DNA of 64,000 bases. Origin: a plasmid. Below are positions 51,501 to 60,500 of the stretch, in pieces. The stretch's first letter is position 1, and each line of letters opens with the position of its first letter. The DNA lies in sequence record LC799789.1; one strand, given 5' to 3'. Position numbers: made by a program.

Positions 51501-54500
51501 AGCGAACCAACAGAGCCAAGCGAACCAACAGAGCCAAGCGAACCAACAGAGCCAAGCGAACCAACAGAGCCAAGCGAACCAACAGAGCCAAGCAAACCAA
51601 CAGAACCAAGCAAACCAACAGAACCAAGCGAACCAACAGAACCAAGTACACCAACGGAACCAAGTACACCAACGGAACCAAGTACACCAACAGTACCAAA
51701 CAAACCAGTAGACACAAACCCAATCGAAAACCCAGTTAATACAGATACAGGCGTTGTGATTGTTGCAGTTGAAGATAGTAAACCGATTATTCAATTAGCA
51801 AACGGAACAACAAAGAAAGTTGAAGCTAAAGAAATTGGTGCAAACGTTCAAAAAGACGGAACAGTAACGGTTAAAGGTTCAGACGGAAAAATGAAAGTTT
51901 TACCAAAAACAGGAGACACAGAAAATATTGCATTGTCTGTCCTAGGGTCATTAATGGTATTAGGATCAGCATTCATTTTTAAAAAGCGAATCTAATTAAG
52001 TATTTATAAAAGCGTGGTCGCAAGTTTCACTAGCAGCCATGCTTTTATTGAATCATTCTAGGACGTTTTGAAGGGGAATGTATACCTTAAAATTAAACAA
52101 GCGCTTAGAATCGTTCTAGGCAACACCAATAACATATTGCTAGTAGGTCGGCTTTTCTTTTCACTTGTTGCGAATACAAGCGTGTGAGTTAGAAAGCAAC
52201 TTGCTTGCCATCGTCTAATCATCTAACCAATGATCAACTAATGTGATTATTAGAACCACTAAAAGTGGTGCGATAACTAACGAGATAGGTTCTGTTGCAA
52301 AGTTTTCCAAAAAATCTATTTTAGTGTAACATTGAGAAAAAAGACAGAGAGGACAATATACTGCAAAATAATATTAAGTAGTGGGGGGGACTTATTGAGT
52401 ATGGGGATTGTAATGAGGCAGTATAATAATTTTTATATAAAATTTCAAAGACAGTTTAAGAAAGCTCATGGACAAGTTATAGAAACAATGCCATTAGAAT
52501 TTTCTAATAAAGAATATATAGAACGCTTTAAATATATGTTTCCAGATAAAATATTGCTGATAGAGAGGGAAAGAAATTATTGGTATGGAAAACGTATTAT
52601 TAGAAAGAATCTTTCCAAAATTCGATGTAAAGGTATGTCTTTAGAAACTGATAGTTTTATACTTTCAACTTCAAAACATATTAGGAAGATAAAAAGAGAG
52701 AGTCTAGCTAGTAACGAAGAGATGGTAAAAAAAGTAAATACTGCCCGAACAATATCTTTAGAAAAATTAAAAGCAGAGTCCTTGAGAAGCAAGAGAAAAT
52801 TAAATTATATTCAGGAAGTTGAACCTCCATATTTAAGGAATTATCGAAATAGATTCTTTAAAACTCATGATTTACATGAACGATTGGAAATTATAAGAGA
52901 ACTTTCTAAGTATGATTCAAAAGAAGTTCGGGAGTTTTTCTATGCAATAAATGGGCATATTAGAAATCAATCATTAAAAATAGAAGTTCAATCATATTTT
53001 CAGAGTTTATCTTTACCTTTTAGGTTGAGCAGAAAAAAGAAAGGTAAGAAGAATTTTATTGATAACGAAATTGTAAAAAATAAAAAAGGACCAGATGAAT
53101 TGAAAAAGAGATTATATATTAATGATTTAGAAAAGATAAAAAGATTTGATATATTCGTATCGCATAATTCTAGAGACGAAGAAAAAATTATAGAGTTCTA
53201 TAAAAAGTTCAATAAAAAAGGACAGGTAGTTTATATAGATTGGATAAATGATAAATACGATTTAAGGCGTGAATGGTGCAATGCCTCCACAGTTGATATT
53301 ATCAAGGAGCGTATAAAACAATCAGATGTTTTTGTATTATACTTTTCAGGAGAAACTTTGAATTCCCAATGGTGTACTTGGGAATTGGGATATGCTGACG
53401 CATTAGGGAAGAAGATATGTGTTTACTTCTCAGAAGATATAAATAGAAAAGGTATTCCAAAATTCTATGTAGCTTATCCTGAATTGCAAATGTCAAAAAA
53501 TATATATGTCAAAATTAGAGGGAACGAAGATATTTTACTTAAAGAGTGGAAAAAATTATAGGCTTATAATAAATTAGAAATGAGGGTAATATGAGACAAG
53601 AATTATTTATAAAAAAATTTTCGAAAGCTATACAAGAAGGAAATGCAGCAGTGTTTGCTGGTGCAGGAACATCGGTCGATGCAGGATTTGTTAACTGGAA
53701 AAACCTTGTAGCACCGTTTGCGAATGAAATTGATTTAGATATTGAAAAAGAAACGGATCTTGTAGGACTGACTCAATATTATATCAATAAAAAAAGAAAT
53801 AGAGGTTCGGTGAATCAAGAAATAATTGACCAATTTTCTAGTCAATATGCAGAAACAGAAGTTATGAATCTGTTAACACGACTTCCAATTTCTACATATT
53901 GGACAACTAATTATGATAAGGTAATTGAAAATGGCTTAAAAAATAATAATCGCAGAGGAGATATAAAAAGGAAGACAGATGATTTAGCAATCAGTATTCG
54001 TGATAGCGATGCGATTGTTTATAAGATGCACGGTGATGTAGATTCACCTAATGATGCAGTTATTTCAAAAGATGATTATGAAAGATATAGCGAGAAAAAC
54101 TCCCTATTTGTAACAGCTTTACGAGGTGACTTAGTTTCCAAAACATTTTTGTTTGTGGGGTTTGGTTTTGAAGATCCTAATTTAGAATCCATCTTGGGAA
54201 AGATAAAAAATTTACTTGGGGAGCGTACTAGAGATCATTATTGTATTCAAAAGAAGGTATTAGAGCAAGATTATAAAAATCGAGAGGAATATAGCTATGC
54301 TAAAATCAAACAAGAATTAAAAATAGAAGATTTGAAAAGGTACGGTATAGATACAGTTCTAGTTGATGATTATTCTGAAATACCTAAGTTGATATTAAAA
54401 ATAGAGGAAGAGTATTTTAAAAATACAATTTTTATTTCAGGTAGTATCTCCGATTACAATGAAAATTGGAGTCAAGAAAAGGTAAATCAATTCTGTTATA

Positions 54501-57500: not shown

Positions 57501-60500
57501 TTATAAACGGAGATAGCTTCACAATAATTTGGTATCCATAAATTTTTTCTTTTTTTATTTCAGTATTACAGACTATTTTTTGCATGAAATTATTAATTTC
57601 TTTTTCAATCTGATGTTTTTGAATTATCTTTGAAAACTCACAATCAACAACAGGGGTAATCCCAGTTTTAGATTGAACTATTTTTTTTACAGAACCTAGT
57701 ATGTCATTTACTTTTTCTCGAACTTTGTTATTCTGTTGTTTCTGAACAAACAAATTCCTTACTTCACTATATGTCTCAACAAAAACTCTCCTTTTTTCAA
57801 CTGAATTACTTAACAGCTCCCATAAATCTGGACTATTAATTAAATCAAGTAATTTGTACAAGTGTGTTTCTAAGTTTTTTGTGGAAATTTCTTCAAGATT
57901 CGATTCTTTAATAAGTTGATATTTGGAAGTTGAGTTACTTGTAGTCGAATCTTTGGCGAATTGCTTCACACTTTCAACAAATTTTTCTACGTCTTGGTTA
58001 AAATCTTCTTCATTATTTTTTAGATAGTCTTGAATAGCAGAAAACTGCGAGTCATACCGTTTTTTCCATATATCTAACGCATTTTTCCCTTGTTCTGTTC
58101 TTTGTTTTTTTATAAAATCATTGGCATTTGATGTTTCAAATTGAGCTATCTCATAAATATCTTCATAATCATAATATTTTTTTATCGTTTCTAAAAAATT
58201 GGTTTTCAGTACCTCGTTTACCAACAATTAAATTTAATCCAGTTGAAACAGTGTGATTTTCAATATCGATTACGTCCCTCAAATATCTAAGGTTTATACC
58301 AACTTTTGTTTTATCCATTAAACAATTCTTTATTTCTTGAAACGAGCAATTGTCAATTTGTAAGTACGTATTTTTATTTTTTAATATTTCTATATTCTTC
58401 CTTTTTTCTTCAGGATCATTATCATCAGCGTGCGCATCACTAAATAATACTGGTGTTAAAGCATCTTCTATTCTATAAAAAGTTTGAAATTTCAATTGAT
58501 TTGCTACTCCACCAACAGAACAAATAGATTCCAATTTTTCTGGTACTGATAAGGCGTTACTTTTTCCTAGTTCAAAGATATAAATTCCATTTTCCCAATT
58601 ACTCATGTGAGTACAAAAATCTTCAGTAGATACTTTTCCGTTCTGTCCTAAATTTTGGGTAGATAGCCATTCAGAAAAATGAACTAGATTAGGACTATCT
58701 TCTTCTGGAAAAATAATATTTACATGTCCCTCTTCAAGACTCAGTTCTATACCTGGAAAAACCTTAGTATTTGGCAAATCATACTGGATCTGTTTAAAAT
58801 TACTTTCATCAAATAAATCGTGATTAGTAATAGCAATTGCGTCTAATTCAGCTGCTCGAACATATTTCTTTAGCCACTCTGGAGAATAAGAAAAATCATA
58901 ATCTTTATGACTAGAAACCGTGTGGATATGAAAATCAATTTTTTTAACCATATGTAGACCTCCATAATAATTTGGAAACTCATGTCTTGATTATATCATG
59001 TAAACGCTGACTAATATGCTTGATATCCGCCATACAAACAACCACTCAGTGACATTGATTTTAGAACTTGTTTGCGGCAATATAAATCCTCCTCTAATTT
59101 ATTTAAATTAAGGATCTTCGAAATGGTTCTGTTGCAAAGTTTTAAATAAAGAATAAAATCCCTTACGGTATCTATGATTTAAGCTGGGATTCCCAATAAT
59201 ATCTTGATTTCAGTACAGACCGAAAACCCGAAGAGAGTGCCTTCTTTTCGGGTTTTCTTATATAATCCTCGGATGGCTTCCATGCCTTTAATCGTGGTAG
59301 AGGCAGTGCGTAAACTTCGATAGAATTTATTGCGTCTCTTTACTGGACGATGGTCTTGTTCAATCAAATTATTCAGGTATTTAATGGTACGATGTTCTGT
59401 CCCTTGATAAAAGCCGTATTCTTTTAGTTTCTTAAAGGCACTTGTAATAGAGGGGGCTTTATCTGTGACTACAACCTTCGGTTCATCAAACTGCTTCACT
59501 AACCGCTTAAGAAAAGCATAGGCTGCTTGTGTGTCCCGTTTTTTACGTAACCAAATATCCAAGGTTAAACCATCTGCATCGATGGCTCGATACAAATAAT
59601 GCCATTTTCCTTTAATTTTGATGTACGTTTCATCCATTTTCCATGAATAAAAGGATTTTTTATTTTTCTTTTTCCAAATTTGATAGAGTAGTTTGCCATA
59701 TTCTTGCACCCAACGATAAATCGTCGTATGAGAAACGTTAATGCCACGATCATATAAGATTTCTTGAACTTCACGATAGCTAAGGTTATAACGAAGATAG
59801 TAGCCCACGGCTACAATAATCACATCCTGCTGAAATTGCTTTCCTTTAAAAGGATTCATCGTCATTCCTCCTGCTATCTTTTTCTATTATTCTACCTTAT
59901 TTGATAGTAGATTTAAAACTTTGCAACAGAACCGTTAATTATATAGACTGAAAATTTTGAATTTTCAGAATAGAACAACTTAAAAGTACTGACAAAATTT
60001 TTTAAAGGGGCAATATTAATGTTCTGAGATAATCAAATCTTACCGAAAATCTCAAAAGTCCAATGTGACACAAGCTGATTCTGTCACATTCGTTAAAATC
60101 GCTCCATCCTTAGAGGCTCTAAGAGGAAATCACTTTTCTTTTAGGGCCTTTTTTCTATAGCTTGTTTAAATGTGACTTATTATCTGTTATAATCATATTA
60201 AGTAACATTTGAGAGGGGACTAAAAATGAAGAGCGTGGAACCGATTCGCGACAAAAAAAAGATCGATGCCATGAAGGCCATTTTGGCTTCCGGAAAATAT
60301 GGGCAACGAAATTTGGTGCTTTTTTCAATCGGGATCAATACAGCCTATCGAATCTCCGATTTAAGGCAGTTGAAATTAAGTGATGTGTTAGAAATTTCCC
60401 GTGGGCGGGTGATTGTCAAAGAACGTCTGGCCATGAAGGAACAAAAAACGGCCAAACATAATTCGGTCTTCATTTCAAACAAATTACGAAAAGTGATTCT

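Follow-up and report, generated by a model that had tools for sequence, protein, structure and literature searches.

The 64,000-nucleotide plasmid stretch of sequence record LC799789.1 analysed here (the window, numbered from its first letter) carries, at positions 52288 to 59933, a defence region which comprises a type I Thoeris operon, the candidate defence system PDC-M49 and a complete copy of the insertion sequence (IS) IS1216, and which lies between an LPXTG gene, the last gene of the conjugation backbone, and an integrase gene (Table 1). The plasmid, which confers vancomycin resistance and is from Enterococcus, is an Inc18-type vanA/ermB/aac-aph replicon fused to a conjugative backbone. 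The initial annotation considered the interval to be one cargo delimited by two IS1216 ends. Comparison with related plasmids and contigs (cited, where needed, by L numbers) suggests, with a probability of about 0.7, that the region is an accessory mosaic between the LPXTG gene and the integrase gene, built stepwise by three recombination systems, and not one IS1216 module.

Table 1. Features of the defence region and its borders, in window coordinates.
Feature	Position	Strand	Evidence
LPXTG cell-wall-anchored protein gene (initially called traO), last conjugation-backbone gene left of the region	51162..51995	+	Pfam Gram_pos_anchor; LPXTG annotation in related plasmids
5'-truncated fst type I toxin RNA locus	52157..52287	-	Rfam RefB11, 100.7 bits
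68-bp IS stub with the 19-bp terminal repeat; left (transposase-proximal) end of an IS6 element of ISS1 type	52288..52355	+	Sequence match to Lactococcus plasmids
7-bp microhomology GAGGACA, then the 3' end, stop codon included, of a lost upstream gene	52349..52381	+	Comparison with lactococcal copies
Poly-G tract G7, ribosome-binding region of thsB1	52383..52389	+	Copy comparison
thsB1, TIR-domain Thoeris sensor, 386 aa from ATG at 52401	52401..53561	+	PADLOC ThsB 1e-189; Pfam TIR_2, ThsB_TIR
thsA, SIR2-SLOG NADase effector of type I Thoeris, 470 aa	53591..55003	+	PADLOC ThsA 8e-198
thsB2, second TIR-like Thoeris sensor, 206 aa	55003..55623	+	PADLOC ThsB 4e-119; Pfam ThsB_TIR
Perfect 17-bp-stem hairpin followed by a T run	55736..55779	+	Inverted repeat, 100% complementary
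res-like region; 28-bp palindrome TGTCCATAAAATAGTTCATTTCTGGACA at 55782-55809; further TGTCCATAAA half-site at 55853	55782..55925	+	Breakpoint comparison
74-aa zinc-ribbon protein gene	56010..56234	-	Pfam zf-Sec23_Sec24 1e-6; beside M49 in all contexts read
Small gene, 117-aa open reading frame (107 aa called in most related contigs)	56285..56638	-	Position conserved in pEc378 and other contexts
PDC-M49B, 94 aa	56646..56930	-	PADLOC PDC-M49B 3e-40, full length
PDC-M49A, ABC/SMC-type ATPase with uncharacterised N-terminal domain, frameshifted	56911..58951	-	PADLOC PDC-M49A; Pfam SMC_N, AAA_21
Complete IS1216, 809 bp, perfect 19-bp terminal repeats, transposase 59179-59865	59125..59933	-	Repeats and domain matches
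Tyrosine recombinase (60226-60825) and adjacent gene; backbone, 1,465 bp right of fst in intact relatives	59934..61345	+	NCBIfam tyrosine recombinase
25,805-bp segment missing from pEF0656-2 and pEF9953.2: rest of mer, relaxase, type IV secretion genes, defence region	33320..59124	.	Plasmid alignment

The Thoeris half of the region (module A, 52288 to about 55795) consists of a 68-bp stub of an IS end, thsB1, thsA, thsB2 and a hairpin which is likely the terminator of the operon. The Thoeris genes already named in the initial annotation are confirmed by PADLOC for all three reading frames, and thsA is flanked by two ThsB genes, as found in many Thoeris loci. ThsA combines the Pfam domains SIR2_2 (2e-27) and STALD (1e-69) of type I effectors and matches the solved ThsA structures 8wc0 (1e-131) and 6lhx (1e-126), and the ThsB model aligns from residue 24 of the longer thsB1 reading frame, for which 386 aa are called in all related contigs. 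As far as can be read from its genes, the operon looks intact and, by homology, the TIR proteins should sense phage and ThsA should deplete NAD+. Positions 52288-55824, stub included, are 99.1% identical to the Lactococcus petauri plasmid NZ_CP141702 (L002), 52288-55795 are 98-99% identical to Lactococcus plasmids bearing the stub, and the module is partly present in an L. lactis plasmid (L004). The core of the operon (52385-55661) is 96.6-99.0% identical in chromosomal conjugative elements of Streptococcus infantarius and S. constellatus, where no IS6 element is nearby; the next protein relatives are streptococcal, with at most 87% identity.

The lactococcal copies differ in the short DNA between stub and thsB1. 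In L002, L004 and the metagenomic lactococcal-type contig L022, 252 extra bp, the tail of a lost upstream gene, lie between two copies of GAGGACA, and the form devoid of these 252 bp is found in the lactococcal-type plasmids L019 and L020 and in all enterococcal copies, so that 52349-52381 is the scar of a 252-bp deletion. As L019 and L020 share the deleted form yet keep the lactococcal left flank, the IS would already have been a 68-bp stub when the enterococcal joint formed. The poly-G tract has seven residues in the window and all other enterococcal copies, among them the island-bearing contigs L010-L014, and in L019 and L020, eight in L002 and six in L004 and L022; the G8 version puts an upstream GTG in frame. 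In L022, a second and different Thoeris pair (ThsA of 459 aa, ThsB of 155 aa; 2296-4148) is located across the same ISS1 stub.

The second half (module B, about 55796 to 59124) holds the zinc-ribbon gene, a small gene without a Pfam or PADLOC match, M49B and M49A, and 55782-59124 is 99.25% identical to Enterococcus casseliflavus pEc378 (L001). The interval had been described as containing only the Thoeris genes and a PHP-ATPase operon; it contains two further genes, both small and conserved, besides a res-like site and the end of the lost gene. From the label itself, the ATPase part stands (SMC_N, AAA_21) but the PHP part could not be confirmed, as M49A gives no Pfam PHP match at E values up to 5 and no relevant PDB sequence match; an H-x-H motif is visible at its N-terminus, which is not proof of a PHP domain, and a single-sequence structure model of the N-terminal fragment with a pLDDT (predicted local distance difference test) of 44.5 was unusable. 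The exact M49B protein is indexed in 441 blocks of the contig collection. With M49A an ABC/SMC-type ATPase and M49B weakly matching the Pfam family CTD9 of the ABC-three-component systems (E 0.07), PDC-M49 may be a member of this class, but the CTD9 match is too weak for such a claim. A literature search found no paper naming PDC-M49.

Although M49A and M49B both match their models, M49A is broken in the window by a 2-bp deletion (GG) at 58206/58207, which leaves reading frames of 260 and 438 aa with a stop after residue 260 in the alignment; the PDC-M49A model of PADLOC matches both fragments, and the intact 680-aa protein of pEc378 scores 1170-1274 bits. M49A is thus probably inactive here, as predicted from the reading frame. 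The same 2-bp deletion occurs in L013, a separate 1-bp deletion with a stop at residue 425 in L010 (13321-15362) and L032, and the gene is intact in L011, L012 and L014. In addition, IS1216 truncates M49A at the window equivalent of 58538 in L025, L027 and L031 and cuts the zinc-ribbon gene at 56099 in L029. Two independent frameshifts together with separate IS1216 truncations hint that PDC-M49 is costly or dispensable.

The left border of the region is formed by a lone terminal repeat of the IS6 family. The 19-mer GGTTCTGTTGCAAAGTTTT is exact at 52288-52306 (+), 59125-59143 (+) and 59915-59933 (-), with near-copies at 2370 (+, two mismatches) and 3163 (-, one mismatch); five matches in the window against 0.07 expected rule out chance, and the single repeat at 52288 is present as initially reported. 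It does not belong to IS1216, as had been supposed: in comparison with both IS1216 ends, identity is lost after base 19, while the 68 bp of 52288-52355 are 97-100% identical to the left end of ISS1-type elements. An IS6 element with this end is complete at 11144-11951 of L002, where the stub aligns to 11144-11211 and the transposase ATG follows at position 73 of the element; this ISS1-type element is about 80% identical to IS1216 overall, but only 59% over the first 100 aligned positions. The same stub adjoins Thoeris in L002, L004, L019, L020 and L022; identity of the window stub to these copies and to the left end of the complete L002 element is 97-98.5%. Its 68-bp sequence is found in 876 plasmid records (415 Enterococcus, 342 Lactococcus, 68 Listeria), with an ISS1N-family transposase annotated under the match in one of them. 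The lone repeat is therefore a genuine IS6-family end of ISS1 type, and not backbone sequence unrelated to IS6. Nor does the stub share the orientation of IS1216: it is a left end that reads rightwards, with the would-be transposase on the plus strand, whereas IS1216 and the IS6 copy at 2370-3181 encode theirs on the minus strand. It is thus inverted with respect to both, and the original reading of one common orientation was invalid because both ends of such elements carry the same 19 bp. A further lone IS6 terminal repeat, GGTTCTGTTGCGAAGTTTTTTAATTT, directly adjoins the IS1216 of pEc378 (about 15049-15074), and such orphan ends of IS6 elements appear to be frequent in these plasmids.

The outer base of the stub is at once the exact start of homology to the Lactococcus plasmids and the exact stop of homology to intact enterococcal backbones, by which alignment it qualifies as a true recombination breakpoint. 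The stub was thought to follow the traO terminator immediately, but the truncated fst locus lies in between. Homology to pV662optrA (L006) and about nine other plasmids ends exactly at 52287; the intact relatives have the gene order LPXTG, fst, helix-turn-helix (HTH) gene, small gene, bacteriocin immunity gene, integrase and Fic, and as their toxin frame runs 11 nucleotides further to the start codon, the fst toxin is decapitated in the window. The frame at 52215-52287 lacks these first 11 nucleotides, so that the 3' part and the terminator are kept and promoter, start codon and the first three codons are lost; the stabilisation system is predicted to be dead in this plasmid. Window position 59934 corresponds to position 5897 of L006, and 1,465 bp of that backbone are absent here between fst and the integrase. 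In the E. durans plasmids CP012367 and CP012385 the identical fst backbone nucleotide is joined to a different IS6 derivative, in CP012367.1 (L007, 4340-4501) a two-ended miniature of about 162 bp with the repeat GGTTCTGTTGCGAAGTTTG and no transposase. Between island-bearing plasmids the LPXTG gene varies in length and is only 83-88% identical, against 97-100% for the DNA on either side; it seems to encode a rapidly varying surface protein.

On the right, the complete IS1216 beginning at 59125 with the shared repeat is as initially described. Its 228-aa DDE transposase on the minus strand places the element in the IS6/IS26 family (Pfam DDE_Tnp_IS240, 9e-42; NCBIfam transpos_IS6, 2e-78), and the sequence is 99.3-99.6% identical to annotated IS1216 copies. 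The adjoining backbone (59934-61345) matches pV662optrA at 5897-7308 and pEc378 at 8381-9793 with 94% identity. The joint between IS1216 and integrase (59933/59934) recurs in dozens of enterococcal plasmids whose DNA beyond the IS is unrelated, and the joint between M49A and IS1216 (59124/59125) is one of several, the others being those in M49A and in the zinc-ribbon gene mentioned above. Two E. faecium vanA plasmids of 45,954 bp each, pEF0656-2 and pEF9953.2, match window positions 1-33319 and 59122-64000 at 99.98-100%, and their IS1216 abuts window position 33319 inside merA, which in the window is intact (546 aa, full-length match to the MerA model). The loss of 33320-59124 is a classic IS1216-adjacent deletion, and by this comparison IS1216 is demonstrably active at the right border. 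The opposite derivation, insertion of a 25.8-kb unit into pEF0656-2, was rejected, as it would need the exact rebuilding of an intact merA. Summing 45,954 and 25,805 bp, the window would be part of a plasmid of about 71.8 kb. The two 45,954-bp plasmids are from Zhuhai (NZ_CP114619.1 and NZ_CP152090.1) and are typed as non-mobilizable in PLSDB; the deletion has taken their conjugation genes and defence region along with the part of merA that encodes the N-terminus.

Two kinds of cointegrate are published for IS1216, copy-in cointegrates with 8-bp target duplications and targeted conservative ones (PMC6952201). For the targeted route, the transposase must be the same and the reacting ends must be identical over an extended stretch (PMC7885326); in a published test, a shared end of 16 bp was insufficient and 44 bp were not used when 775 bp were available (PMC7885326). 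Target duplications of 8 bp were sought at the IS6 ends and none were found, the flanks (ACGAGATA before the stub, TTCGAAAT before and GTTAATTA after IS1216) being all different. As the loss of such duplications is common after IS-mediated deletions, in which they are often absent, this is weak evidence taken alone. An ATTTCGA of 7 nucleotides beside another IS1216 copy in L025 was dismissed as a target duplication, both occurrences lying on the same side of the IS, and pIP816 was dismissed as an empty site, since its IS1216 sits on the opposite side of the LPXTG gene. A further complete IS6 copy (2370-3181) is present and, with its transposase on the minus strand, directly oriented with IS1216, as had been noted, but this agreement does not extend to the stub. 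It is about 80-81% identical to IS1216 and annotated merely as an IS6-family transposase; it is too divergent from IS1216 for the targeted conservative route of the literature. Elsewhere in the window, inverted IS256 copies (6412-7735 and 9654-10976) flank aac(6')-aph(2''), as annotated in pEF0656-2, in a Tn4001-like arrangement, and the secretion-gene backbone contains a 1,618-bp insertion (48106-49723), which is lacking in L010-L012 and L014 and present in L013, where it is called an IS110-family transposase.

Between the two halves lies a further joint, at a 28-bp palindrome with a 10-8-10 layout that is unique in the window. The window tracks the lactococcal sequence (L002, L019) up to ATGTCCATAAAAT and pEc378 from GTTCATTTCTGGACACTGC onwards and, since the left half of the palindrome matches L002 and L019 and the right half pEc378, the crossover is placed at its centre. 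The L. lactis plasmid L004 also loses homology inside the palindromic site, within which the breakpoints of three different plasmids fall. A breakpoint at 55925, where the BLAST match to L019 ends, was discarded, because past the palindrome centre L019 diverges substantially and pEc378 is nearly identical. In L002 and L019 the corresponding region, homologous though clearly diverged, is followed after about 130 bp by a PF00239 resolvase gene; an imperfect palindrome with an additional half-site upstream of a resolvase gene in relatives is what is expected of a res site, and the joint may thus stem from recombination between two res sites, with the crossover position read directly from the alignments and a serine resolvase as the presumed enzyme. 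Exact-M49B look-ups show the usual setting of M49B (L026, L028, L030) as fst, HTH gene, small gene, immunity gene, integrase, Fic, res, zinc ribbon, small gene, M49B, M49A and resolvase, which is why the PDC-M49 half is taken as resident accessory DNA of this plasmid region. As two separately sourced modules meet at the putative resolvase site, the interval is not one cargo.

The distribution of the region points in the same direction. The interval is AT-rich, as had been suspected, with a guanine-plus-cytosine (GC) content of 0.300 that lies below all 229 sliding 6.8-kb segments of the window (window mean 0.343, van segment 0.432). Neither is it contiguous backbone in relatives, as the related plasmids without Thoeris (pEc378, L026, L028, L030) have different DNA here. 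The module was not met elsewhere between IS1216 copies: no plasmid in PLSDB covers more than 55% of the interval and all copies read occupy the same site. Exact ThsA, annotated as an Enterococcus or E. faecium protein, is found on about 90 contigs. Contigs with both modules were gathered by look-up of the exact ThsA and M49B proteins, and those of sufficient length for a judgement (L010-L014, L024, L032, L033) all have the same arrangement and the same two outer junctions. Across the island contigs the island is 99.85-100% identical, compared with 93-96% for the secretion genes and 94% for the integrase region. Near-identity extends leftwards from the stub for about 200 bp into fst, up to a first difference at 52086; on the right it is lost inside IS1216 or directly behind it (differences at 59829, 59852 and 59973). 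No independent IS-mediated insertion of the unit elsewhere was seen among the ThsA and M49B look-up copies, and the exact left-junction pattern ATAACTAACGAGATAGGTTCTGTTGC (backbone joined to the IS6 end, specific to the present site) had no match in genome and metagenome contigs. The region therefore seems to spread at one fixed site among related plasmids, by homology of the left flank and by IS1216 on the right, and not by insertion at new sites.

On these grounds, the region would have been assembled in three steps from a plasmid with the order LPXTG, fst, HTH gene, small gene, bacteriocin immunity, integrase, Fic, res, zinc ribbon, small gene, M49B, M49A and resolvase, as present in relatives. 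The Thoeris operon, of Streptococcaceae origin and already behind the 68-bp ISS1 stub, would have entered from a Lactococcus-type plasmid, with the joint exactly at the outer base of the terminal repeat of the stub, inside fst; the junctions are seen in the sequences, and the likely mechanism would be exchange with an IS6 element already resident at the fst site, an alternative being transposase acting in trans on the stub and a distal IS6 end. A serine resolvase would then have joined the lactococcal res behind Thoeris to the resident res before PDC-M49 with loss of the intervening DNA, the crossover position being observed and the enzyme conjectured. Finally, IS1216 would have trimmed the DNA right of M49A and linked the region to the common IS1216-integrase junction, a step visible by comparison of plasmids, with the Inc18-type vanA/ermB/aac-aph plasmid as partner in this lineage. 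Of the initial proposal of an IS1216-mobilisable defence cargo, it holds that the IS6 ends are true borders and that IS1216 can delete or move the region with its neighbours, but not that the region is a discrete module or a single cargo; any present loss or transfer of the region through IS1216 would have to include adjacent DNA.

Several points weigh against this stepwise assembly. The 68-bp stub is a poor substrate for homologous recombination as well as for the targeted conservative route, which leaves the mechanism of the first step conjectural, and the IS6 derivative that E. durans has at this site, with no more than about 18 bp in common with the stub, is no direct source of homology; the right half fits the published IS1216 rules exactly, the left joint is harder to explain. 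The res identity of the palindrome is deduced from its position and the clustering of breakpoints, the order of the three steps is not provable from present-day sequences and, as near-identity extends about 200 bp into fst, spread by ordinary homologous recombination is equally compatible. A bolder version of the first step, which we consider rather unlikely, is that the ISS1 stub without a transposase of its own was the working end that brought Thoeris from Lactococcus plasmids into an enterococcal vanA plasmid, docked at an IS6-marked position and now serves as promoter of thsB1, from which it is about 45 bp away after the 252-bp deletion. Decayed IS6 ends would in that case not be dead scars but working sites at which defence cargo from another genus docks and is expressed. 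A -10-like box in the stub (52327-52332) reads TAACAT in every enterococcal copy and TAAAAT in the lactococcal copies beside Thoeris; should the stub drive thsB1, TAACAT in place of TAAAAT would weaken the promoter. A promoter and terminator scan of 52000-60100 gave 42 promoter-like sites where 43.9 are expected, which is uninformative, and did not call the candidate boxes of the stub.

That the whole interval is one cargo mobilised by IS1216, be it a translocatable unit or a pseudo-compound transposon with its left IS1216 reduced by decay to a single repeat, is improbable. IS6-family ends at both borders, with the outer base of the stub a true breakpoint, and an active IS1216 on the right would agree with it, and a decayed pseudo-compound transposon is what the L. 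petauri plasmid resembles, with Thoeris between the stub and a complete ISS1-type IS in direct orientation. However, the stub has only 19 bp in common with IS1216, and is of ISS1 type, 68 bp long and inverted, so that the interval does not qualify as an IS1216 pseudo-compound transposon or as a translocatable unit; direct repeats of a single IS, 8-bp duplications and a second site are all missing. The separate histories of two modules joined at a res-like site, the residence of the M49 half in the backbone, and the identical site and junctions in every copy read, with no PLSDB plasmid holding the unit, speak against this reading as well. Even less credible is a 7.6-kb giant IS, inserted whole, with the stub repeat at 52288 and the far IS1216 repeat at 59933 as its ends: these are perfect 19-bp inverted copies with a working transposase gene in between, but 1,465 bp of backbone are missing between them, no 8-bp duplication frames them (ACGAGATA versus GTTAATTA) and no second insertion site is known, and the IS1216-integrase joint, occurring in dozens of cargo-free plasmids, was therefore not made by this unit.

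Of the remaining explanations, the view that the IS ends are old scars, with spread purely by flanking homologous recombination and a left joint made without transposase, deserves more credit than these two and is still doubtful. The near-perfect identity of the island across plasmids whose secretion genes differ by 4-7%, its continuation for about 200 bp left of the stub, and the same site and junctions everywhere are what it would predict. Against it, the shift from near-identity to 94% on the right takes place within or at IS1216 and not in the backbone, the deletion at the IS1216 edge is a current activity of the transposase type, and the left joint is exact to the base at the tip of an IS6 repeat in two lineages with different IS6 sequences, for which homologous recombination alone is insufficient.

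Here, on a conjugative vanA plasmid, phage-defence genes occupy the same IS1216-shaped accessory region in which hospital enterococci gather resistance genes; this has a bearing on phage therapy against vancomycin-resistant E. faecium. The route of Thoeris is traceable from Streptococcus conjugative elements through Lactococcus plasmids to Enterococcus plasmids. For annotation, caution is advised in that a shared 19-bp IS6 repeat reveals neither the source IS nor its direction, and an apparently IS-bounded island can conceal joints made by other recombinases. A literature search found no paper combining Thoeris with IS1216 or with E. faecium plasmids.

The Thoeris operon has the domain make-up and operon structure of type I systems with solved ThsA (6lhx, 8wc0, 8bto) and shows nothing unusual, being a variant of a Streptococcus/Lactococcus clade (next relatives at 87%) on an enterococcal plasmid. 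PDC-M49 resembles its PADLOC definition in that both components match over their full length, with the gene order of pEc378 and many contigs, and differs from it by the frameshift in M49A; the system is a computational candidate only. As in serine-resolvase recombination between the res sites of plasmids, an imperfect palindrome has the crossover at its centre and several independent breakpoints fall in the site, although, unlike in the relatives, no resolvase gene is left beside it and its identity as res is a deduction. The accessory regions of E. faecium plasmids are shaped by IS1216 deletions and cointegrations (PMC12711152), and the pRUM-like plasmids described there share one IS1216-bounded accessory region, repeated backbone deletions of varied extent and cointegration with the present plasmid, which in contrast is a conjugative plasmid with MOBQ relaxase and type IV secretion fused to an Inc18-type vanA plasmid, and whose cargo is phage defence instead of resistance. 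As in the pseudo-compound transposons, translocatable units and adjacent deletions of IS26, IS257 and IS1216 (Harmer & Hall; PMC6952201, PMC7885326), an IS6 element borders accessory genes, one IS flank is constant and the other variable, a deletion ends at the IS edge, target duplications are lost and a second plasmid is fused at an IS1216 copy. Unlike in those structures, only one IS is complete, the second end is an inverted 68-bp stub of ISS1 type (about 80% identical overall), the defining direct repeats of one IS are absent and one internal joint lies at a putative resolvase site. The region is an ordinary kind of plasmid mosaic, shaped by IS6 elements and a resolvase, and leaves the current view of IS6-family biology unchanged.

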